Positions 49,554 through 60,107 are shown, counted from the stretch's first letter. The stretch: 64,000 nucleotides of DNA from Sulfurimonadaceae bacterium (GCA_041562555.1 JBFEXS010000002.1:17368-81367); one strand, 5' to 3'. Numbers and translations are program-made. Notes: generated by a model from the sequence alone, not told the origin.

Positions 49554-50714
49554 CTAGGAGAGACGTTCTTTATAATCCTTGTATCCGAATGTGCGTACAA
49601 CTTTAAGCTCTTTCTCCTGCGTCCAAAGTGCAAGGCTGGGAAGTTTTATCCCATTGAAGGTCGTGTTTTTTACAAAAGTATAATGGATCTGATCTTCAAA
49701 AATGATCTTGTCCCCGATATTAAGAGGCCTGTCAAAAGAGTAATCCCCCATTACATCCCCGGCCAGACAGGTGTTGCCACCTAATTTATAGGTATATGCT
49801 TTCTTGTTAGCCTCTGCAGCACCTCTCACCTGAGCCCGGTAAGGCATGGCCAGAGTATCCGGCATATGTGCTTCTGCCGATGTATCCAATATTGCGATCT
49901 TCATCCCGTTATCAACAATATCCAAGACACTTGAAACCAATACCCCGGTCTCCCATCCAACAGCTTCACCCGGTTCAAGATAGACCTGTACAGCATGCTC
50001 TGAGCAAAAAGCTTTGATCACCTCGATCAGTCTGGATACATCATAACCCTTTTTGGTAATGTGGTGTCCTCCACCAAAATTGACATATTTCACTCTGGGA
50101 ATGAAGTTTCCGAACTTGGATTCAAAAGCTTTCAACACCCCTTCAAGGGCACCGACATCCTGTTCACACAAGGCATGAAAATTCAACCCGTCCAGATCTT
50201 CGAAGAAATCCCCCTCATAGGACTCGATGGCCTTTAGAAGATTCGCTTGTGTCGTACCTAGACGGCTGAACAGTCCACAAGGATTATACAGGTCAACCGG
50301 AGATTCGGAATACTCCGGGTTCAGGCGTAAAGAGAGTGAGATATCCGGATTAATGGCTTTTACCCTATCTTTAAACCGGAGATACTGTGCGGGCGAATTA
50401 AAAACGATGTCATCAGAGATAGCTGCGATTTCATCTATCTCCTCCTCTTTAAAAGCAGGAGAATACGTATGCACTTCCTTGTTCATCATTTCCCTAGCCA
50501 GTTTCGCCTCATGCAGACCGCTGGCAGTACATCCATGCAGATATTTCCCTACCAGATCAAAGGTAGCATGCATAGCGAACCCTTTGAGTGCCAGGATGAC
50601 TTTTGCTCCCGACTCCCTTTGGACCCGATCCAATATATGAAGATTGGCTTCAAGTCTTTCCAACTCACAAATATACATTGGTGTATGCGTGACATGATCA
50701 AAGTCTATACTCAT
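49554..50714 (-). CDS. nspC: carboxy(nor)spermidine decarboxylase
   Basis: LALKGF, YNPC...SRLG, FHALCEQ, GGGHHIT, EPGEA, HMPD, NTCLAGD, VKNTTFNG. Confidence 0.95.
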   Translation of the reverse strand: MSIDFDHVTHTPMYICELERLEANLHILDRVQRESGAKVILALKGFAMHATFDLVGKYLHGCTASGLHEAKLAREMMNKEVHTYSPAFKEEEIDEIAAISDDIVFNSPAQYLRFKDRVKAINPDISLSLRLNPEYSESPVDLYNPCGLFSRLGTTQANLLKAIESYEGDFFEDLDGLNFHALCEQDVGALEGVLKAFESKFGNFIPRVKYVNFGGGHHITKKGYDVSRLIEVIKAFCSEHAVQVYLEPGEAVGWETGVLVSSVLDIVDNGMKIAILDTSAEAHMPDTLAMPYRAQVRGAAEANKKAYTYKLGGNTCLAGDVMGDYSFDRPLNIGDKIIFEDQIHYTFVKNTTFNGIKLPSLALWTQEKELKVVRTFGYKDYKERLS

Positions 50715-51353
50715 CTATATTCTCCTAAAAATAAAAAGGTCTTTACCCACACGTTCAAATTCGGCCTGCCATTGTTTTGCCAACCACTGCATCGTCTCTA
50801 TCGAAAAAAAACAGACATGGGTCGGGTCATTTTTATAATACCATGAGGCAAATGCGTCTTGGGACGGGTACGGTTGTGTAAGTAGGGCCAAAAGTCCTTT
50901 GTTCTCTACCATAGACCAGAGTTTGTCCATAACTCCTTTTGGATCATACAGATGTTCTATGACTTCAGTAGAGGTAATAAAATCATAGCTTTTCTTTAAT
51001 ACTTCTTCATCTCTTGCATAAAAATGATCATAGATACACATTGTATGCCCCTGCTCTTCAAACATCTTGGAGAGGGTCGGTCCAGGTCCTGAACCAAAGT
51101 CCAGACCGGCAGCCTCATCGTCAATACGTTCGAGTACCGGATCTAAGACCTTGCGAAGATATTGACGGTACCCGGGATCATCCGGTGAATTTGTATGTAA
51201 ATCATATCGCTCTTTTTCATCCGCCTCAGCCAATCGAAACTCTTCTAGGACAAAAACAAGTGAACAGTCGGAACACAGATGGTATTCACCCGTCTCATGT
51301 TCACAAAAAAGCGAGGTGTCTGTACAATGGCAAAGAGGACAGATACTACTCAA
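50715..51353 (-). CDS. class I SAM-dependent methyltransferase with N-terminal zinc finger
   Basis: CPLC...CSDC, LDFGSGPGP motif I, TEVIEH, WYYKNDPTH. Confidence 0.9.
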   Translation of the reverse strand: MSSICPLCHCTDTSLFCEHETGEYHLCSDCSLVFVLEEFRLAEADEKERYDLHTNSPDDPGYRQYLRKVLDPVLERIDDEAAGLDFGSGPGPTLSKMFEEQGHTMCIYDHFYARDEEVLKKSYDFITSTEVIEHLYDPKGVMDKLWSMVENKGLLALLTQPYPSQDAFASWYYKNDPTHVCFFSIETMQWLAKQWQAEFERVGKDLFIFRRI

Positions 51354-52527
51354 GTTCTTTTATTTTCCATGGGAGGCCCTGCTCATTGAGTTCAGCCATA
51401 AATGGATCAGGATCAAACTCTTCCATGTTGAAGACACCTTCGGCAGACCATTTCCCTTCAACCATCAGTTTCGCACCGATCACCGCAGGTACACCAGTCG
51501 TATAGGAAACAGCTTGTGATTTGACCTCAGCATAACATTGTTCATGATCACTGACCTGATAGATATATATCTTCTTTTTCTGGCCGTCTTTTATCCCTTC
51601 CGCCACAATACCGATATTCGTCTTGCCTTTTGTTCGAGGACCTAAAGAGGCAGGATCAGGAAGAAGTGTCTTTAAAAACTCAATAGGAACGATTTTCTGC
51701 CCCTTATGTTCCACCTCTTCAATACCAAGCATCCCGACATTCTCCAGACACTGCATATGTGTAAGATAGGACTGGCCAAAGGTCATGAAGAAACGGATAC
51801 GCTTGAGTCCCTTGATATGTTTGACCAAAGATTCCATCTCTTCATGATACAGCAGGTAAGAGTCTTTAGGCCCTACTTCAGGATAGTCCCAGACCATCTT
51901 GATCTCCATCGGTTTCGTCTCGACCCATTCGCCGTTTTCCCAGTAACGTCCATTTGCCGAGACCTCACGAAGGTTTATCTCCGGATTGAAGTTTGTCGCA
52001 AAAGGGTATCCGTGATCACCGGCATTACAATCAAGGATATCGATTGTATGGATCTCATCAAAATAGTGTTTTTGTGCATAGGCACAGAAGACATTGGTCA
52101 CTCCCGGATCAAATCCCGAACCTAAAAGTGCCATCAAGCCTTTTGCTTTGAAGTCCTCATGTTTTGCCCACTGTTCTTTATACTCAAATTTCGCTTCATC
52201 AGGATGCTCATAATTGGCTGTATCCAGATAAGGGATACCTGTTTTTAAACACGCATCCATGATCGTAAGATCCTGATACGGCAATGCGACATTGATAAGA
52301 ATGTCCGCGTTAATCTCTTCGATCAAAGCTGCCAGTTCATCCGTATTATCCGCATCGACCTGAGCAATCTCTATCGCACCCTTTGGCAACTCATCAGCAA
52401 TCGTCTGACATGAGCTCAATCGTCGACTGGCAAGGGTGATCTTGCTAAAGGTGCTCTTGTTCATTACACACTTATGTGTTACAACACGTCCTACGCCGCC
52501 GGCTCCAATAATTAATACATGTGACAT
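51346..52527 (-). CDS. carboxy(nor)spermidine dehydrogenase (saccharopine dehydrogenase family)
   Basis: IIGAGGVG, NVALPYQD, YLDTANYE, GFDPG, TNFNPEINLRE, SYTTGVP; in operon with nspC. Confidence 0.93.
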   Translation of the reverse strand: MSHVLIIGAGGVGRVVTHKCVMNKSTFSKITLASRRLSSCQTIADELPKGAIEIAQVDADNTDELAALIEEINADILINVALPYQDLTIMDACLKTGIPYLDTANYEHPDEAKFEYKEQWAKHEDFKAKGLMALLGSGFDPGVTNVFCAYAQKHYFDEIHTIDILDCNAGDHGYPFATNFNPEINLREVSANGRYWENGEWVETKPMEIKMVWDYPEVGPKDSYLLYHEEMESLVKHIKGLKRIRFFMTFGQSYLTHMQCLENVGMLGIEEVEHKGQKIVPIEFLKTLLPDPASLGPRTKGKTNIGIVAEGIKDGQKKKIYIYQVSDHEQCYAEVKSQAVSYTTGVPAVIGAKLMVEGKWSAEGVFNMEEFDPDPFMAELNEQGLPWKIKELE

Positions 52528-54403: not shown

Positions 54404-54772
54404 TCACTTCACTAAACCGATATACAGGACACAGGACCATATGCATCCCGTCAACACAAGACTCAAAAAGACCAGACTTGCCCCTGCATCCTTAGCCCGT
54501 TTTGCCAATTCATGATACTCAAGTGTCACCAGGTCGACAACACGTTCAATAGCGCTATTGATCACTTCTGCCATAATAGGGATGAAAAGCGACAGCGAAA
54601 GAATAGCCTGCAGATGAAACGCCAAAGGAAGGAACCAGGCTACGGTATTAAGCCCGATGAAAAGCAAGATCTGTAGTTTAAAGGAAGACTCATGCTTTGT
54701 GATCTCTATCAGTCCCGCCAACGCATACGTCGTATTTTTAAAAAGTGTATATTTAGGTTTGTTCAATGCCAT
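54404..54772 (-). CDS. dgkA: prokaryotic diacylglycerol kinase
   Basis: E..F, AEVINSAIERVVDL, HELAKRAKDAGA. Confidence 0.93.
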   Translation of the reverse strand: MALNKPKYTLFKNTTYALAGLIEITKHESSFKLQILLFIGLNTVAWFLPLAFHLQAILSLSLFIPIMAEVINSAIERVVDLVTLEYHELAKRAKDAGASLVFLSLVLTGCIWSCVLYIGLVK

Positions 54773-54853
54773 TGCTTATCCTCTAAAGATATCATACAAG
54801 AGTATTCGTGTAATTATAGTGTAATGCCTGCAAAACCGATCATGTGAGATTGC

Positions 54854-55942
54854 TTATTTGTCTGTACAGGCATAAACATCCAACTCACCCATAGAGGGTT
54901 TCATCAAGACCCATTGTGCCGTCTCCCAGTTTAATACAGGCACCTGTTTATAGGCCAAAACAAGCTTTTCGGGCATCGGCACATCCTTGGTTTCTTGCAT
55001 AAAGCTGTCAAGAAGTTTGTAGCGTTGTTGGGAATTACGTAAAAGCTCTGAATCATACCATTGCTGTTCATCCATCTGTGCCACCTCGTCTTCGCTGTAC
55101 GCGGCTTCATTATGGTGTATAAACGGTGAGCCTTGCAGATCATAATGATTCGTCTGTATCAATAGCCCTCCTTCATCCATATAGCGTACATGTACCACTC
55201 CCTTGTGTCCGAGCTCAACCACACAGGCTTCTCCCTTTTCAACACCGCATAGGCTGATAAAACAGGGGGAACCTGTTTCCCAACTTTGCACCTCTTGCAA
55301 TGCCTCTGTATAAGAGTTGACACCCTCATCTTCAAGGAGTTTACGGATCAAAAAGGTGGGGTCGGATTTAAAGCGCGCCGAGCGCTTCCATGGTGCATAA
55401 TTGATAGCGATTGAGAATCCTTTCTTAACACCGGTCAATACGCCGACCATAGCCGTTATCCCCGCTATCTGTGCCACCTCTTCATCTGCTCTGTTTATAA
55501 AAGAGAACTTGCGGGTTGACTTGGCAATATCATCGGAACCTTTCCAGTCCAAAGAGCGAAAACAGAGCATCTGTTTGTCTTTCTCATCCCAGGCCATCAC
55601 CACAGAACACCCCATATGTGCGAGCGTATACTGCCGCTGCAAAAATGCCATAAGCGAAGGAGACATGCCTGAGAACTGATGCGCAAGATAGTCGCTTTCA
55701 TGCGTAAAATGTCCCCACCATCGGTAAACCGTATGATAGAGGATATTGGCACTCATATGTACCAGCCATTTAGGTACTCCCACTTCATAAACAAGTTTGC
55801 TCATTGCGGTACACAGCGCCTGCATACTGCTATGATCCTTTGCCATGACATCTCTCCATACCTCTTCGGCACTTTTTTCCTCAAAATAGACCTTGCGGGT
55901 CTCTTCTACTTTGATGATATTTTTATAGACATTACTGAGCAT
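54854..55942 (-). CDS. Ntn hydrolase resembling acid ceramidase/NAAA
   Basis: G-C112-S nucleophile, R129-x-x-D132, VGVLTGVK, GEACVV, QTNHYD, PVLN; 11-nt overlap with aas. Confidence 0.82.
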   Translation of the reverse strand: MLSNVYKNIIKVEETRKVYFEEKSAEEVWRDVMAKDHSSMQALCTAMSKLVYEVGVPKWLVHMSANILYHTVYRWWGHFTHESDYLAHQFSGMSPSLMAFLQRQYTLAHMGCSVVMAWDEKDKQMLCFRSLDWKGSDDIAKSTRKFSFINRADEEVAQIAGITAMVGVLTGVKKGFSIAINYAPWKRSARFKSDPTFLIRKLLEDEGVNSYTEALQEVQSWETGSPCFISLCGVEKGEACVVELGHKGVVHVRYMDEGGLLIQTNHYDLQGSPFIHHNEAAYSEDEVAQMDEQQWYDSELLRNSQQRYKLLDSFMQETKDVPMPEKLVLAYKQVPVLNWETAQWVLMKPSMGELDVYACTDK

Positions 55943-58900
55943 CGCCTAGCTCCTTGGCCAATTTTTTTGCACCTGAGAAATCACTTTTTCCGGTCCCGAG
56001 TTTTGGTATTTGATCCACTTCATACATTTCCGAAGGCAGCATCAATGGGTTCATACCCGACTCTATGAGCCCTTTTTTCAGTCCTTCAAGGTCACTGTAT
56101 CCTTGAAGGAGCAAGACAACCTTCTCGCCCTTTTTTGCATCAGGAAGATTTACCGCCAGCAGATCGATCTCACTGTCATTGATATAGGCCTTAATATACG
56201 CCTCTATACTGCCAAGGGAGACCATCTCTCCTCCCAATTTGGCAAAACGCGAATATCGATCAACGATAAAGAGGTATCCATCCTCATCAACATGTCCTTT
56301 ATCCCCTGTCTTATACCAGGTTGCACCGTCTATCTCAACCATCACTTCTGATGTCTTCGCTTCATCCTTCAAATATCCCTGCATCACCTGTGGACCGCCA
56401 ATGAGGATAAGTCCATCTTCATCTGCTTTTAACTCTTGCAGATTATCAGGGTCAACCACCTTAAATGCCGTACCCGGAAGAGGTAGACCGACACTTCCGA
56501 CCTTTGTTCCCACCTGAACACTAAAGGCTTCTGTCTCCAAGACATCCGGCAGGTTCACACTCGCGACCGGCGAACTCTCCGTCACTCCGTATCCTTCAAA
56601 GATATCCTTGTTAAACTTCACTTTAAAGGCCTCTTTTACTTCCGGACTCAATTTTTCTGCTCCCGATACTGCAAGACGCAAAGAATCAAACATCAGTGGA
56701 TGCACCTTCTTATTACGTGTATAGAGTCTGAAGAATGTCGAAGTACCGAACATGACTGTTGCGCTATACCGTGCAGCTGCACGACCGATACCCACCGCAT
56801 CTGTAGGATCAGGGTGACACACCATCGGTATGCCTTCTATCATCGGAAGCCATGTCGTTGCCGTTAGACCAAAAGCATGGAAAAGTGGCAGGGAAGCCAA
56901 TATGACATCCTCATCCCGCATATTGAGTACATCCGAAATCTGCTTGACATTAGCCATAAAGTTCTTATGACTCAACATGACCCCTTTTGGTTCCCCTTCC
57001 GAACCCGAAGAGAACAGAATAGCAGCAGTGTGTTCATTATCAACCTTATTGATATAAATCATCTTCAGAATAAACGAAGGCAGAACCTTTGCCAAGAGTA
57101 GTGTCGAGACCGCCTTGAATTTTGATATTTCACCTTTAAGTTCCTCAAGATAGACGACCCTGCATCCTGACAACAGAAGGTCCGTATCAAATCCTTTAGC
57201 CTGCAGTTTGGAAATGAACTGTCTTGCCGTATAGATAGTTTTGATCTCAGCCTTTTTTATCGCTGATACAACCGCATCGGAAGAGGCTGTATAATTAAGA
57301 TTCACAACGGTTTTTCCTGCCATCAGGGTGGCCATGTTCACGATAGCACCGGCAGAAGTCGTCGGCATCAAAATTCCAATATTCTGTTCTTCATGCTCTT
57401 TAATAAAACTTCTGAAAAGTATGGTCGCTGTCAACACTCGGGTATAGGACATGCTGTTGGTCTTGGAGTCTGCCATACAAAAATCCGAACCTAAACGTGA
57501 AGCTGTGTCAACCCATGCCTCCTGCATCGATGGAAGACTTTGTGTATATCGTTTCCATGAGCTAAAAGAGAGTTCAAACACTTTTTGCTTCACCTGTGTC
57601 CGGGTGCTGTTGATGTCTATCGGCTCTGAGAATGAGACCACGACTTCACGTTTACGGCTGTTCTTTGCCTTTTGTAGTTTCTCAGATGAGCGTGAAAAAC
57701 GGCTTCCCCACATTCCCTGAAGGTAAAAAGGTACGATGACGCCATTGGCACCCTTTGCCATATGTTCAAACCCTTTCTTAAACTCTGAAAGCTGTCCGGT
57801 ACGGCTAATGGTACCTTCAGGAAAAAGACAGACTACTTCCCCTTCATCCAACAGAGCCTTGACACGTTCAGCTGCTTCTTTGGCACCCCTTGGTGAGATC
57901 GGTATCACTTTAAAAAAGTCTAAAAAAGCCTTAAGATACCACTTCTCATAAATCGCCCTGTCCATGACGAACCGCACCTGTCGGGGTAAAGACATCTGAA
58001 TCAAGGCCCAATCCAACCATGAAATATGATTTCCCAATAGAAGCACTCCTCCACTTTGAGGAAAATGATTAAGACCCACGACATCGATCTTTATCCGGCG
58101 TGAGATCAATGACGAGATCAAAAAGATCACCATGGATTGCGGGATATAGGAGATCACATAGATCGATCCCACCAGTGCGACCACCAGCATCAGATAAAAC
58201 AGCCCTATACTGTTTAGACCAAAATAGGCGAAGACGACCGTGAGTGCCAAGAAGGAGATCATTGCGATATTCTGTATGAAATTATTTCCGGCGATCACCA
58301 GCCCGAGCTCATGATCTTTTGCATTAAACTGCAGCAAGGCATTAAGTGGGACAATAAACAGACCGGCAAAGAATCCAAAGGCCATAAAATTCAATGCATG
58401 TATCCATGTCGCCTGAACGTTGGGCAGGATCAACAGACTTATGGTAATCCCCAGAGCCCCTACCGGTATGGTTCCCGTCTCTATATAGTTTTTAGATATC
58501 TTACCTGCCATGATGGAACCGACCACGATACCGATCCCGGCCAAAGCCATCATCCCCTGTACGATGATCGTATTGTCCAAGGCAAGAGCATCTTTGGCAT
58601 AAGCCGGAAAACTTGCCAGGACGACCTGGGAGATCGACCAGAACAGGGATAGTCCGATAATGGAGTGAAAGATAATACTGTTTTGCGAGATCACCTTCAT
58701 ATTTCTTTTGAGATAACTTCCATTGAAGTATTGATTGACCTCAAAATGTATATCACTCTTGATATTCGTATCCGGAAGACGATAAGCAAGTAACAACTCT
58801 ACGATCGAGCCAAAGACCAAGGCCCATCCAATCGGTGCGATATAGTTCAGGATCTCTTCTGATGACGTATAGCTCTTCCCATCCAAGAAGCCCTCAAAAA

Positions 58901-59381
58901 ACACCGAGTAAACAACGATCCCTGCAAGTATAGATACCGTCGTCACTGCCTGTACAATACCATTCCCCAGTGTAAGGTGCCGATTTCCGACAAGCTCTTT
59001 GATATACCCGTATTTAGCCGGTGAATAGAGTGCAGACTGTACCGCAAGAATAAAGGTCAAAGCAAAAGCCAACTCAAAAGCCCCCGCGTAATATGACGCC
59101 GTGATCCCCAGGGTAATAAACACTGCTGCCCAGGCTGCATATCGCATGATCTTACTTTTTGAGTATTTATCAGACAGAAAGCCTGAAGGCGAAAACAGAA
59201 CGATAAACGGTAACAGGATGAGACCATTAACAACCGCCGTCAATATGATCTGTGTCTGTCCGTCATAGATCTTAAAGACTGTATTTTGGATAATAATCTT
59301 ATGTCCGAGGTCTGTAAAGGCATTTAAAAAAACAACGAGTATATAAGGGATAAACCCTTTGATCTTCCATATACTAGGCAT
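55932..59381 (-). CDS. aas: Aas-type fusion: MFS (LplT-like) + lysophospholipid acyltransferase + acyl-ACP synthetase
   Basis: about 12 TM helices, NHISWLD and FPEG acyltransferase motifs, SSGSEGEPKG, YGVTE, YKTGD, DRYSRFAK; start at the ATG 59381 with SD GGAG. Confidence 0.93.
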   Translation of the reverse strand: MPSIWKIKGFIPYILVVFLNAFTDLGHKIIIQNTVFKIYDGQTQIILTAVVNGLILLPFIVLFSPSGFLSDKYSKSKIMRYAAWAAVFITLGITASYYAGAFELAFALTFILAVQSALYSPAKYGYIKELVGNRHLTLGNGIVQAVTTVSILAGIVVYSVFFEGFLDGKSYTSSEEILNYIAPIGWALVFGSIVELLLAYRLPDTNIKSDIHFEVNQYFNGSYLKRNMKVISQNSIIFHSIIGLSLFWSISQVVLASFPAYAKDALALDNTIIVQGMMALAGIGIVVGSIMAGKISKNYIETGTIPVGALGITISLLILPNVQATWIHALNFMAFGFFAGLFIVPLNALLQFNAKDHELGLVIAGNNFIQNIAMISFLALTVVFAYFGLNSIGLFYLMLVVALVGSIYVISYIPQSMVIFLISSLISRRIKIDVVGLNHFPQSGGVLLLGNHISWLDWALIQMSLPRQVRFVMDRAIYEKWYLKAFLDFFKVIPISPRGAKEAAERVKALLDEGEVVCLFPEGTISRTGQLSEFKKGFEHMAKGANGVIVPFYLQGMWGSRFSRSSEKLQKAKNSRKREVVVSFSEPIDINSTRTQVKQKVFELSFSSWKRYTQSLPSMQEAWVDTASRLGSDFCMADSKTNSMSYTRVLTATILFRSFIKEHEEQNIGILMPTTSAGAIVNMATLMAGKTVVNLNYTASSDAVVSAIKKAEIKTIYTARQFISKLQAKGFDTDLLLSGCRVVYLEELKGEISKFKAVSTLLLAKVLPSFILKMIYINKVDNEHTAAILFSSGSEGEPKGVMLSHKNFMANVKQISDVLNMRDEDVILASLPLFHAFGLTATTWLPMIEGIPMVCHPDPTDAVGIGRAAARYSATVMFGTSTFFRLYTRNKKVHPLMFDSLRLAVSGAEKLSPEVKEAFKVKFNKDIFEGYGVTESSPVASVNLPDVLETEAFSVQVGTKVGSVGLPLPGTAFKVVDPDNLQELKADEDGLILIGGPQVMQGYLKDEAKTSEVMVEIDGATWYKTGDKGHVDEDGYLFIVDRYSRFAKLGGEMVSLGSIEAYIKAYINDSEIDLLAVNLPDAKKGEKVVLLLQGYSDLEGLKKGLIESGMNPLMLPSEMYEVDQIPKLGTGKSDFSGAKKLAKELGDAQ

Positions 59382-60030
59382 TGACTCTCCTTTTGTGTTC
59401 TTGTTTGGTTTGCAGGTTGAAGATATAAGGCCGTAAAGAGAGGACAAGGTCTAGAAAAAGTTCCTGCGCATGATTGCTGCCCTTGTCATCTGTCTCGATC
59501 AGCTCCGCACCGAGCTCATACTCCAAAGCAGCGAGATGTTTTGCTGCATCTGCATACGCTTTCAATAATTTCTCACCCCCGGAGGATGCTTGAAGGTCAT
59601 CCAGTATCTGCAGCATCTTCCAACTGCGATCGCTGAAATGGTTCTCATACATCTCAAGAACCCCCTCATCCACATAAGCCAGGATCTGTTCTTTAGTAAG
59701 GGAATAGATCTCCAAAGCCTCCTGCAAAGAACGGTAATGACGTTCTTTGACACCGCTGAGCAGGTCCAGCTTCTGTATCAATACGTCTATACCGTTCTCA
59801 AAATCAAACCGATTGTCATCAAAGACCTGTTTGATCTGTGTGATCGAATAATGCAACTGATGTTGCAAGGTCTTGATCAGACGGACACGTTCGATGGAAT
59901 CATCTGCATAGAGATGTACATTGGGTTTGGGTTTGGAAGGTTCTTGTAGAAGTCCTTCTTTGACATAAAAAAGAAGAGTTGAACGGGTCTCCCCTGTCGC
60001 TTTCATCAAAGCAGCCATTTTGATTGACAT
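59374..60030 (-). CDS. MerR-family transcriptional regulator
   Basis: IKMAALMKATGETRSTLLFYVKEGLL HTH, LY...IERVRLIK.LQ..L.YSI.QIK; 8-nt overlap with aas. Confidence 0.88.
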   Translation of the reverse strand: MSIKMAALMKATGETRSTLLFYVKEGLLQEPSKPKPNVHLYADDSIERVRLIKTLQHQLHYSITQIKQVFDDNRFDFENGIDVLIQKLDLLSGVKERHYRSLQEALEIYSLTKEQILAYVDEGVLEMYENHFSDRSWKMLQILDDLQASSGGEKLLKAYADAAKHLAALEYELGAELIETDDKGSNHAQELFLDLVLSLRPYIFNLQTKQEHKRRVNA

Positions 60031-60059: not shown

Positions 60060-60107
60060 AGTATGACAAAATAATTAAAAAGTGTCAAGTGTCACTTGAC
60101 ACTTTTT
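60060..60107 (-). promoter_or_regulatory. rny terminator hairpin overlapping the -35 box of the merR-aas promoter
   Basis: AAAAAGTGTCAAGTG-T-CACTTGACACTTTTT at 60077-60107; minus strand TTGACA-N17-CATACT. Confidence 0.7.

Follow-up and report, generated by a model that had tools for sequence, protein, structure and literature searches.

Does a ceramidase-like hydrolase gene whose start overlaps the end of aas act together with the Aas protein, and if it does, on which lipid? This question is raised by four minus-strand genes in a 64,000-nucleotide stretch of DNA from a Sulfurimonadaceae bacterium (the whole stretch analysed, hereafter the window). The original prediction proposed that merR, aas, the hydrolase gene and perhaps dgkA form a system for the salvage or remodelling of amide-linked lipids. 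The ORF listing of the window confirmed the gene order (Table 1), and the predicted overlaps of 8 and 11 nt and gap of 81 nt were all reproduced on the minus strand. The gene labels agree with the domain calls, namely MerR_1, MFS_1 with Acyltransferase and AMP-binding, and DAGK_prokar, and the label "ceramidase-like" agrees with the structural and profile matches described below.

Table 1. Features of the merR-aas-hydrolase locus, in window coordinates
Feature	Position	Strand	Description
merR	59374..60030	-	MerR-family regulator, 218 aa; PF13411
aas	55932..59381	-	Predicted fused LplT-PlsC-acyl-ACP synthetase, 1149 aa; Pfam and NCBIfam
Hydrolase gene	54854..55942	-	Predicted Cys-Ntn proenzyme, acid-ceramidase/NAAA lineage, 362 aa; fold and profile
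dgkA	54404..54772	-	Diacylglycerol kinase, 122 aa; PF01219
Candidate MerR operator	60077..60107	-	31-nt perfect palindrome AAAAAGTGTCAAGTGACACTTGACACTTTTT
Promoter-like site	60060..60088	-	TTGACA-17 nt-CATACT, TG ahead of the -10 hexamer

Gene coupling and regulation

The genes merR, aas and the hydrolase gene form a real, tightly coupled module. The letters common to merR and aas are ATGCCTAG (merR ends GTC AAT GCC TAG; aas starts ATG CCT AGT), and those common to aas and the hydrolase gene are ATGCTCAGTAA (aas ends GAT GCT CAG TAA; the hydrolase gene starts ATG CTC AGT AAT). The longest aas reading frame runs from a TTG (55932-59447); the ATG at 59381 was taken as the biological start because AGGAG precedes it, giving the 1149-aa protein. 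The arrangement goes beyond chance because adjacency of aas and the hydrolase gene recurs in two distant clades. The fourth gene, dgkA (DAGK_prokar, PF01219, 94.1 bits against a cut-off of 22.3), lies beyond a spacer that contains TATAAT at 54818-54813, and no terminator-like site was found between it and the hydrolase gene. Across 17 related loci, dgkA adjoins the hydrolase gene only here and in loci L002 and L018; 12 of the 17 have a desaturase gene in between, alone or accompanied by others, and in L003 and L039 dgkA is not nearby. In L021, L025 and L028, relatives that lack the hydrolase, it comes after aas as well. The intervening genes, together with the proximity to aas even where the hydrolase is missing, speak against dgkA as a member of the system. 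Judging from these gene orders, it is a conserved neighbour of aas in the genus but probably no part of the module.

The merR product carries an N-terminal winged HTH and scored 49.5 bits against MerR_1 (PF13411; cut-off 21.6). In its AF2 model (pLDDT 81.4) this HTH is followed by another HTH-like unit and by a long helical hairpin; the closest folds are SCO5550 (2dg6, E 2.4e-3) and the C-terminal domain of Rv1828. No conserved Cys/His metal site was found among 20 homologues (alignment A3). Of 19 loci fetched from other Campylobacteria, 14 have a homologue immediately ahead of aas, and the hydrolase was found in none of 300 genomes from the one order of the class searched, so that most aas genes have no hydrolase partner. 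This MerR-type protein is therefore not particular to the three-gene system.

The right arm of the palindrome upstream of merR includes the -35 hexamer TTGACA, and the promoter-like site has the top score of the region, with 10/12 matches. Both TTGACA and CATACT are retained in all five genus sequences compared (alignment A2), and TTGACA-17-TATACT, TAAAAT or TATTAT can be read by eye at the same place in other Campylobacteria. The palindrome core, GTGTnAAG-N5-CTTnACAC, occurs once in the window (at least one match was found in 18 of 100 shuffles) and once genome-wide, as does a control pattern; the operator call draws its weight from conservation of the motif and not from these counts. At about 70 nt ahead of merR the same motif recurs, both within the genus and in other Campylobacteria, including loci in which the upstream gene is not rny, and is absent upstream of aas in six loci that lack merR. 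As a side observation, the palindrome is also terminator-shaped and gives a terminator-like match for the upstream rny gene. A classical MerR operator sits inside an over-long -35/-10 spacer of 19-20 nt. We considered this layout and rejected it, as the spacer here measures 17 nt and the palindrome spans the -35 box together with DNA upstream of it; the MerR-type protein may thus act as a repressor or as a class-II-type activator. On the strength of this sequence conservation, the MerR-type protein with its palindrome is assigned as the regulator of aas across Campylobacteria, whether the hydrolase is present or absent.

Aas and the hydrolase family

The Aas protein contains MFS_1 (residues 16-375), Acyltransferase (431-554) and AMP-binding (640-1004) domains, all above Pfam cut-offs, and scored 1568.7 bits against NF006386/PRK08633 (NCBIfam cut-off 1221). 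Its translation shows NHISWLD and SSGSEGEPKG, which we take to be the HX4D and adenylation motifs, respectively. By its domains and equivalog score, the 1149-aa protein is assigned to the fused LplT/Aas type. Aas activates free fatty acid. Fused LplT-Aas forms are mentioned in passages of PMC11416262 and PMC8590670, and the former describes their functions as uncharacterized.

The AF2 model of the hydrolase (pLDDT 93.1) comprises an alpha part, residues 1-111, and a beta part that opens with Cys112. Its best structural match was the precursor of NAAA (6dxw; VIA-align Z 36.9, 311 residues aligned, rmsd 2.4), followed by acid ceramidase (5u84; Z 34.7, 318 residues) and, in third place, isopenicillin-N acyltransferase (IAT; 2x1c; Z 29.7, 309 residues). 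Foldseek matches to NAAA and acid ceramidase had E values of 1.6e-18 to 5.8e-18 and TM scores of 0.70-0.80, and all alignments to mature beta chains begin at model residue 112. Five residues (C112, R129, D132, N265 and R307) do not vary across the 30 hydrolase sequences and align with the ceramidase VRNMD, QTN and RRTP stretches; a common PVLN motif is aligned as well in the profile alignment. From published structures, we take these residues to include the catalytic Arg/Asp pair, the oxyanion Asn and a second Arg. A profile of the 30 sequences recovered five sequences from the PDB at E<=1, every one an acid ceramidase or NAAA (E 7.6e-16 to 8.8e-13); IAT was not recovered at this threshold.

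Acid ceramidase (ASAH1) and NAAA belong to MEROPS family C89, and the substrates of NAAA are N-acylethanolamines. Their small-subunit domain, PF15508, turned up in seven when 22 distant relatives of the hydrolase profile were sampled. The hydrolase itself matched neither PF15508 (NAAA-beta) nor PF02275 (CBAH) at E<=0.01. Curated models place it nearest C45, below their cut-offs (AAT, 20.5 against 23.2 bits; C45_proenzyme, 56.7 against 85), and NCBI lists its relatives under the C45 (acyl-CoA:isopenicillin-N acyltransferase) family name. Membership in C45 (PF03417/NF040521) was rejected given these scores and a Z for IAT below those of NAAA and acid ceramidase. The C45 family includes an acyltransferase. 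Fold and profile together mark the hydrolase as a Cys-Ntn proenzyme that belongs to the acid-ceramidase/NAAA lineage and, though bacterial, is related to human acid ceramidase.

No signal peptide was found in the hydrolase here or in the whole Campylobacterota clade, nor is there room for one: in many relatives the start codon is preceded by an in-frame stop at a distance of 0-1 codons. Tat-exported or lipoprotein-type orthologues occur elsewhere (L009, L011, L048, L051, L014 and L057); three that are linked to aas (L009, L011 and L051) have Tat signals.

Recurrence and neighbours of the aas-hydrolase pair

A neighbourhood survey, suggested in the original prediction, extended the aas-hydrolase pair well beyond one strain, so the confinement to a single strain that would have counted against that prediction does not hold. 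Within the genus, the hydrolase is encoded in 6 of 16 other species and its gene abuts aas in all six. Across the family, the gene immediately upstream of the hydrolase gene is aas at 10 of 15 genome loci and 17 of 32 metagenome loci; of the 15 remaining metagenome loci, eight extend about 1 kb or more upstream without showing aas, and seven are too short or cut. The linked hydrolases form two distant tree groups, in which 22 of 22 and 6 of 7 members are next to aas. In the Campylobacterota clade every locus with upstream sequence has aas directly upstream, although these loci are close kin and were counted as one evolutionary observation; the Alphaproteobacteria-like clade is linked in six of seven loci. 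The two clades differ in the NCBIfam equivalog of their aas genes (PRK08633 against PRK06814) and in the regulator (MerR against TetR), and in both the aas and hydrolase frames overlap or almost touch (11 nt here; 8 nt in L008 and L009). About a third to half of the family members outside Campylobacterota do not adjoin aas, which means that the family's link to Aas is not an obligate one.

Further neighbours are linked to membrane repair. The gene order aas-hydrolase-DUF2339, in which DUF2339 corresponds to Arc3A, is found in L010, L012 and L051, half of the six aas-linked loci in the Alphaproteobacteria-like clade. Passages of PMC8926400 describe Arc3A as protective against a phospholipase A toxin and place aas genes next to arc3 genes; the word "hydrolase" is absent from the main text of that paper, and its single "C45" is a chemical formula. 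DUF2339 (PF10101) was not found in the source genome, which is 88.9% complete, and was found in 1 of 17 genus genomes. The hydrolase gene has PspA as a neighbour in L053 and L056, and in L056 a pair of TetR and LplT-PlsC genes is also near it.

Substrate, rival readings and known systems

We propose that the hydrolase is a fatty-acyl amidase acting on an N-acylated membrane lipid, most plausibly N-acyl-PE, and that Aas re-activates the freed fatty acid; we give this tentative reading a probability of roughly 40%. We favour N-acyl-PE because published E. coli lipidomics ties Aas overexpression to this lipid. As reported in citing passages, Aas overexpression on its own raised N-acyl-PE and N-acyl-PG to about 20% of E. 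coli lipid (PMC11416262, discussion), and aas overexpression was the extreme for two N-acyl-PE species in PMC8145963, which labels Aas "headgroup acylation". Endogenous N-acyl-PE is a better lead than the environmental or host N-acyl lipids named originally. Under the amidase reading, an autoregulated merR-aas operon would have gained, in this genus, a third, translationally coupled gene, co-transcribed with the other two, for a cytoplasmic, self-processing Cys-Ntn amidase. The precursor would cleave itself before Cys112, and the mature enzyme, at the cytoplasmic face of the inner membrane, would hydrolyse an amide-linked fatty acid from a membrane lipid, the likeliest substrate being head-group N-acylated PE or lyso-PE. 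The acyl-ACP synthetase domain would re-activate the freed chain and return it to lysophospholipid, and the hydrolase would thereby correct or tune the output of the Aas repair cycle. Expression of the whole unit would be set by the MerR-type protein, bound to the palindrome over the -35 box. Strict proofreading cannot be the role of every member, because the Tat-exported, aas-linked orthologues act in the periplasm, away from the cytoplasmic side on which Aas works. Also weighing against the amidase reading are the lack of a hydrolase partner for most aas genes, the family members that stand apart from aas, the below-cut-off placement nearest C45, and an OlsF-like aminolipid synthase encoded in the genome, which would offer another amide-linked substrate.

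It is somewhat unlikely that a stricter version holds, in which Aas itself occasionally N-acylates PE, the hydrolase strips the chain as an N-acyl-PE head-group amidase, the synthetase re-activates it in a self-correcting cycle, and the MerR-type protein senses the lipid state. To our knowledge, no described enzyme has N-acyl-phosphatidylethanolamine head-group amidase activity. Were the stricter version true, the same enzyme, joined to Arc3A elsewhere, would be a missing catalytic step in the repair of phospholipase damage.

One alternative, close to the original prediction, is that the hydrolase splits ceramides, N-acylethanolamines or similar lipids from outside the cell and that Aas feeds the fatty acid to the membrane. 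The fold and residues shared with acid ceramidase and NAAA and the established activation of free fatty acid by Aas are compatible with this, and the six exported orthologues could meet outside lipids in the periplasm. We nevertheless consider such salvage unlikely: with no signal peptide here or in the Campylobacterota clade, substrates would need to be imported, LplT is described as specific for lysophospholipids in passages of PMC11416262, the only sequencing runs with this DNA are marine metagenomes with no host link, and the Arc3A and PspA neighbours point toward the cell's own membrane.

Alternatively, the enzyme could remove the amide-linked 3-hydroxy fatty acid of ornithine or lysine lipids or their lyso forms, with Aas recycling the chains. 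A 578-aa protein of the genome combines PlsC-like and Acetyltransf_5 domains, the architecture of OlsF, and similar proteins are encoded in 16 of 17 genus genomes; a passage of a 2026 review places OlsF homologues in Campylobacterales, and a word search of its text returned no degradation, amidase, turnover, deacylase or catabolism, leaving a niche for a degrading enzyme. This turnover is quite unlikely, given that genomes carry the OlsF-like gene whether or not they have the hydrolase, that the two genes are unlinked (contig 38 and contig 2), and that nothing ties Aas to amino lipids.

The enzyme could instead run as an IAT-like N-acyltransferase, as the original prediction also allowed, taking an acyl group from Aas-made acyl-ACP onto Cys112 and passing it to an amine to make an N-acyl lipid. 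Acid ceramidase can run in reverse, IAT is the third-best fold, and AAT and C45_proenzyme are the sole Pfam and NCBIfam matches, both below cut-off. The protein lies closer to the hydrolases than to IAT in the PDB profile search, the three aas-linked Tat orthologues cannot reach acyl-ACP, and a second N-acylating enzyme seems unnecessary if Aas overexpression alone already raises N-acylated PE, as the citing passages report; we find this idea, weakened as it is, highly doubtful.

We also think it improbable that the hydrolase has no functional tie to Aas and is an amidase for a soluble amide (a peptide, an acyl-homoserine lactone, or a bile-salt-like or polyamine conjugate) that merely stands beside aas. 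The gene is rare, its family is named by NCBI after carcinine hydrolase, and family members occur in unrelated contexts, with FG-GAP, CHAT, aldolase-SDR, MCP or DUF938 methyltransferase, or with Amidohydro_2 either fused or adjacent. These observations must be weighed against the overlapping or abutting adjacency to aas in two distant clades that differ in aas subfamily and regulator. Disposal of detergent-like lysolipids, with the Cys-Ntn enzyme as a lysophospholipase or transacylase alongside Aas and Arc3A, is very unlikely: the aas, Arc3A, PspA and LplT-PlsC neighbours are all tied to lysophospholipid or membrane stress and phospholipase-B-like Ntn proteins are among the folds (3fgw, Z 20.7; 4bwc, Z 15.3), but the enzyme's nearest relatives are amidases, this likeness falls far short of that to NAAA and acid ceramidase, and evidence of esterase activity in that lineage was not found.

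The pairing of aas and its regulators with a ceramidase relative, recurrent in distant bacteria, points to an undescribed membrane-lipid repair step. The original prediction knew of no description of the combination, and the literature searched likewise gave none for LplT/Aas with a dedicated MerR regulator or a coupled amidase; the passages of PMC11416262 and PMC8590670 mention neither.

Comparison with known systems places each part of the unit. The regulator shares the N-terminal MerR HTH with BmrR, CueR, MerR, SCO5550 and Rv1828, and its best folds are two-domain MerR proteins; it differs in the 17-nt spacer, the palindrome over and upstream of the -35 box and the lack of conserved metal ligands. 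IAT self-cleaves before a Cys that follows an alpha part of about 100 residues. The hydrolase resembles IAT in fold, whereas its scores lie below the curated C45 cut-offs, its profile misses IAT, and its context is lipid repair instead of beta-lactam synthesis. With ASAH1 and NAAA it shares the alpha-plus-beta proenzyme fold (Z 34.7-36.9), the Cys that opens the beta part, and the aligned Arg/Asp pair, Asn of QTN, an Arg and PVLN motif; the animal enzymes are lysosomal glycoproteins active at acid pH, whereas this protein is bacterial and lacks a signal peptide, identity is only 15-23%, and PF02275 and PF15508 do not match it. The Arc3 pathway of Pseudomonas aeruginosa is similar in that three related loci have the order aas-hydrolase-DUF2339 and in that aas and arc3 limit lysophospholipid damage in passages of PMC8926400, although DUF2339 was not found in the source genome. 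The closest known system is LplT/Aas of E. coli and Klebsiella, fused in other Gram-negatives. All three of its activities are predicted here in one protein, to which the locus adds a dedicated MerR-type regulator with its own candidate operator upstream and a translationally coupled gene for a predicted ceramidase-like amidase downstream.

Gene layout and family of the hydrolase

The four genes lie between rny, upstream of the unit, and a two-component pair (response regulator, histidine kinase) downstream of dgkA. The original prediction, which proposed an amide-lipid system of merR, aas, a ceramidase-like hydrolase gene and possibly dgkA, described these genes correctly in every detail, including overlaps, spacer and TATAAT. 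merR overlaps aas by 8 nt (merR end GCC TAG, aas start ATG CCT AGT), aas overlaps the hydrolase gene by 11 nt (aas end CAG TAA, hydrolase start ATG CTC AGT AAT), and the 81-nt spacer before dgkA contains TATAAT at 54818-54813. The ATG taken as the aas start is preceded by AGGAG and agrees with the starts of relatives' aas genes. Pfam and NCBIfam models also bear out the labels merR, aas and dgkA; Aas contains MFS_1, Acyltransferase and AMP-binding domains (Pfam) and scores 1568.7 bits against the fused-Aas equivalog PRK08633 (NCBIfam; cut-off 1221). Past the two-component pair lie saccharopine-dehydrogenase-like, methyltransferase and Orn/DAP/Arg-decarboxylase-like genes, the first and last of which resemble carboxynorspermidine dehydrogenase and decarboxylase of the alternative spermidine pathway.

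Coordinates of the features discussed, as window positions or as positions in fetched loci (L numbers)
Feature	Position	Strand	Remarks
merR	59374-60030	-	218 aa; MerR_1 (Pfam)
aas	ORF 55932-59447 from TTG; start taken, ATG at 59381	-	1149 aa
hydrolase gene	54854-55942	-	362 aa
dgkA	54404-54772	-	122 aa; DAGK_prokar (Pfam)
saccharopine-dehydrogenase-like, methyltransferase and decarboxylase-like genes	49554-52527	-	
short aas	L024:1498-4641, L025:1498-4629, L026:1480-4632, L027:1477-4635	-	four species of the window's genus
membrane desaturase gene	L005:8194-9360	+	388 aa; PF00487; same strand as hydrolase gene; equivalents in L001, L004, L029-L033, L038, L041, L042, L044
OlsF-like gene	L087:907-2643	-	own genome, contig 38; 578 aa; PlsC-like + Acetyltransf_5
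fusion P0122	L046:1074-3455	+	N-terminal Amidohydro_2 + hydrolase; about 790 aa
PspA/IM30 gene	L053:221-958, L056:5156-5890	-	divergent, beside hydrolase gene
LplT-PlsC gene	L056:2389-4290	-	633 aa; no ligase domain

The hydrolase scores below the cut-offs of AAT (Pfam; 20.5 bits, cut-off 23.2) and C45_proenzyme (NCBIfam; 56.7, cut-off 85). Among PDB sequences, the single-sequence query found five matches (best E 3.9e-4), each of them an acid ceramidase or an NAAA, and a profile of 30 homologues found the same five only (E 7.6e-16 to 8.8e-13). With a confident AlphaFold model (pLDDT 93.1, pTM 0.92), the top Foldseek matches were acid ceramidase and NAAA precursors (E 1.6e-18 to 5.8e-18, TM 0.70-0.80), followed by isopenicillin-N acyltransferase (IAT; 5e-12). 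An all-against-representatives search with VIA-align gave Z 36.9 for the NAAA precursor (rmsd 2.4, 311 residues), 34.7 for acid ceramidase (318 residues) and 29.7 for IAT, and its alignments to mature large subunits all begin at model residue 112. C112, R129, D132, N265 and R307 are invariant in 30/30 homologues and, in the profile comparison with PDB, align with the ceramidase catalytic stretches, with a PVLN motif common to both. R16 and R144 are further invariants, specific to the family, and self-cleavage would be expected between Gly111 and Cys112. The label "ceramidase-like" is upheld, since the PDB profile matches and the top folds in both structure searches are acid ceramidase and NAAA. 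An exhaustive profile search of 1.84 billion representatives returned 94 proteins at E<=1e-30, rising to 575 at <=1e-10 and to 1559 at <=1e-3; among 22 sampled more distant matches, 15 carried AAT, 3 carried CBAH and 7 carried PF15508, the small-subunit domain of NAAA and ceramidase. As judged from sequence and predicted structure, the hydrolase represents a small bacterial family of Cys-Ntn proenzymes. It falls within the acid-ceramidase/NAAA-IAT group and is closer there to the two lipid amidases, acid ceramidase and NAAA, than to IAT.

A search among longer proteins, which is weak evidence, found no hydrolase fusions. Two fused proteins seen in the profile search, P0122 in L046 and P0154 (hydrolase with a C-terminal Metallophos phosphoesterase, 605 aa), could be gene-calling artefacts because each comes from a single contig. 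In another locus, L052, Amidohydro_2 is encoded by the gene next to the hydrolase gene. We dropped the idea that P0154 joins a sphingomyelinase to a ceramidase, as its Metallophos domain has no likeness to sphingomyelinase in PDB.

Recurrence of the aas-hydrolase pair

A genome scan limited to one genome per species yielded 15 hydrolase loci, 10 with aas directly upstream on the same strand. Cultured carriers of an orthologue include Paramagnetospirillum marisnigri SP-1 and Terasakiella sp. PR1. The metagenome scan yielded 32 loci, some identical in DNA to genome loci, as with L015 and L055. In 17 of the 32, aas or at least the 3' end of aas is directly upstream; in 8, the available upstream sequence (about 1 kb or longer) contains no aas; and 7 are too short or cut to show the upstream gene. 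In the window's genus, the hydrolase occurs in 6 of 16 other species and abuts aas in all six; it is absent from 300 other genomes of the order, a sample without members of this genus.

On a maximum-likelihood tree of 44 hydrolases, the aas-linked genes form two distant groups, one of Campylobacterota (22/22 linked, these loci being close kin) and one Alphaproteobacteria-like (6/7 linked). Unlinked lineages lie between them, and the linkage label needs at least three changes on the tree. Across the two groups, the partner aas genes share only 27-29% identity and belong to different NCBIfam equivalogs (PRK08633 vs PRK06814), and the regulators also differ, with MerR in the Campylobacterota group and TetR in L008, L012 and L051. 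In both groups, the aas and hydrolase reading frames overlap or nearly touch. By this comparison, the pairing counts as two, possibly three, independent observations, and the case for a functional link between the hydrolase and Aas rests chiefly on this recurrence. The neighbourhood survey thus finds the pairing in two distant clades and not confined to this strain.

The titles of two high-GC loci, L010 and L012, name Bacteroidota and Candidatus Limiplasma. On the tree, however, both hydrolases fall with that of L051 inside a clade that also contains Alphaproteobacteria-labelled sequences; the aas genes of L010 and L012 are PRK06814-like, and the contigs may be mis-binned. Four species of the window's genus that have neither merR nor the hydrolase gene carry an aas shortened to about 1043-1052 aa. 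The stop falls within a few codons of a DGYLFIV/DGYLY motif, so that the adenylating enzyme lacks its C-terminal subdomain, and tblastn found no remnant in these four species. Either the locus is decaying or the short Aas may still be functional.

Regulation and downstream genes

Counts within the genus suggested that merR belongs with the hydrolase gene: merR precedes aas in 5/5 hydrolase-bearing loci with upstream sequence and in 0/6 loci without the hydrolase, and it precedes aas in 9/9 metagenome loci. However, a class-wide search altered this view, as it found full-length MerR homologues (23-38% identity) in 31 of 301 genomes. Among 19 fetched loci of other Campylobacteria outside the window's genome, aas directly follows merR in 14 (L068-L078, L080, L082, L083). 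Because these loci have merR-aas and the sampled order lacks the hydrolase, we read merR-aas as the older unit and the hydrolase as an addition.

A palindrome, GTGTnAAGT-N3-ACTTnACAC, precedes merR by about 70 nt, both within the genus and in other Campylobacteria; it is also present where the gene upstream is not rny and absent before aas in merR-less loci. Its right arm contains TTGACA, with CATACT 17 nt later (TATACT, TAAAAT or TATTAT in other genera). We rejected a MerR-type 19-nt spacer (TTGACA-19-TACTGT), as its final T is not conserved and CATACT at 17 nt is. The promoter layout differs from the classical MerR type. From the position of the palindrome, it is possible that MerR represses by occluding the -35 box or that it activates. 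The MerR model (pLDDT 81.4) has an HTH, a second HTH-like unit and a helical hairpin, and in fold it comes closest to SCO5550 and Rv1828, both two-domain MerR proteins. The homologue alignment contains no conserved metal ligands, and the effector domain has no Foldseek match at E<=0.001; the fatty-acid-binding regulatory domain Rv1264N (E 0.05-0.09) was too weak a match to retain. A genome search defined no regulon, as it gave a single match each for the operator core and for a control pattern. Searches of open-access papers and preprints yielded no description of a MerR-type aas regulator or of a regulator-operator-aas unit. This unit, conserved across Campylobacteria, offers an entry point to repair regulation in lysophospholipid-rich bacteria such as Campylobacter.

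The proposed membership of dgkA in the system is not supported. dgkA is directly next to the hydrolase gene only in the window, L002 and L018, and it follows aas in the hydrolase-less relatives L021, L025 and L028. In 12 of 17 related loci, a fatty-acid desaturase gene, sometimes with others, separates the two, and no dgkA is nearby in L003 and L039. Judged by position, dgkA is best described as syntenic with aas, and it has a -10 box of its own. With no terminator-like site separating the hydrolase gene from dgkA, transcription may read through into dgkA. The desaturase gene is missing between these two genes in the window, and the best that the window's own genome (88.9% complete) offers is a weak match at 30%. 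This enzyme matches generic PF00487 only, with no further PDB or NCBIfam match; it is possibly a fourth lipid-remodelling member that was lost in the window's genome.

Candidate functions and relation to lipid repair

Many Campylobacterota loci have in-frame stops 0-1 codons before the hydrolase start, and the enzyme of this clade therefore has no signal peptide. Other orthologues carry Tat signals (L009, L011, L048, L051) or Tat lipoprotein signals (L014, L057). Forms with and without signals are both found beside aas, and the Tat-exported orthologues argue against an obligate hydrolase-Aas complex. Further lipid-repair genes are found nearby: PspA/IM30 in L053 and L056, a locus with TetR and an LplT-PlsC protein and no aas upstream, and DUF2339 directly after the hydrolase gene in L010, L012 and L051. 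DUF2339 was not found in the window's own genome (88.9% complete). Passages of PMC8926400 identify DUF2339 as Arc3A, describe it as more critical than any other factor when Pseudomonas aeruginosa has to survive a phospholipase A toxin, report that it prevents lysophospholipid build-up, and note that arc3 genes have aas neighbours in many bacteria; the word "hydrolase" is absent from its main text, where the sole "C45" is a chemical formula. Because its forms suit either face of the inner membrane and its genes lie beside lipid-repair genes, the hydrolase most simply acts on a membrane lipid. In a Gammaproteobacteria-labelled MAG (L006:1238-2107, +), an upstream gene with an Lnb_N domain, related to lipoprotein N-acylation, overlaps the hydrolase gene by 4 nt; genes for HMG-CoA reductase, a UbiA prenyltransferase and a PEP-utilising enzyme lie downstream.

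Our preferred reading, at a probability of about 0.4, is that the hydrolase is a lipid fatty-acyl amidase working with Aas. N-acyl-PE bears the same N-acyl-ethanolamine amide that NAAA cleaves in free form. Because this amide is of NAAA type and Aas overexpression is reported to raise N-acyl-PE, we propose that the hydrolase might strip the N-acyl chain from the head group of PE or lyso-PE. Aas would then re-activate the fatty acid released. N-acyl-PE is the most specific substrate lead, and it comes from passages in the literature. The discussion in PMC11416262, citing Jeucken 2019, states that when Aas alone was overexpressed, N-acyl-PE and N-acyl-PG reached about 20% of Escherichia coli lipid, and it calls this rise potentially harmful. 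A paper from the same group as that reference, PMC8145963, labels Aas "headgroup acylation" and places overexpression of aas at the extreme for two N-acyl-PE species. N-acyl-PE as the specific substrate is still rather unlikely. Against an amidase working with Aas stand the many aas genes, indeed most, that lack such a partner, the many family members not beside aas, and the Tat export of some orthologues.

Salvage of outside ceramide or N-acylethanolamine by the hydrolase is less probable again. Turnover of ornithine or lysine lipids would fit the OlsF-like gene in the window's genome, found in 16 of 17 genomes of the genus, which suggests that the organism makes such lipids; however, OlsF-like genes and the hydrolase are uncorrelated in the genus, and we consider this turnover improbable. 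We hold the same low expectation for an IAT-like N-acyltransferase, which is weakened because periplasmic, Tat-exported forms cannot use acyl-ACP, and for a hydrolase of soluble amides unrelated to Aas. An ester-type lysophospholipase or transacylase is the least probable.

Consistent with the original prediction, which knew of no description of this combination, we found none in the open-access papers and preprints searched, nor any of an Ntn amidase partner of Aas or of bacterial members of the acid-ceramidase/NAAA lineage. The hydrolase-Aas association is a rare one, drawn from comparative genomics and structure prediction; a run search listed the window's DNA in four DNA runs of one marine-metagenome study and in no RNA run.

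LplT/Aas is the textbook Gram-negative system for lysophospholipid repair; lipoprotein maturation, type VI toxins and the phospholipases of hosts all cause such damage. An enzyme of the acid-ceramidase/NAAA lineage that is coupled to Aas, and to Arc3A in some bacteria, would bear on the fate of bacterial N-acylated phospholipids and on the enzymatic steps that accompany Arc3A-type defence. That lineage has been studied mainly as lysosomal drug targets; the window's member extends it into bacteria, some of them in culture and open to genetic work.
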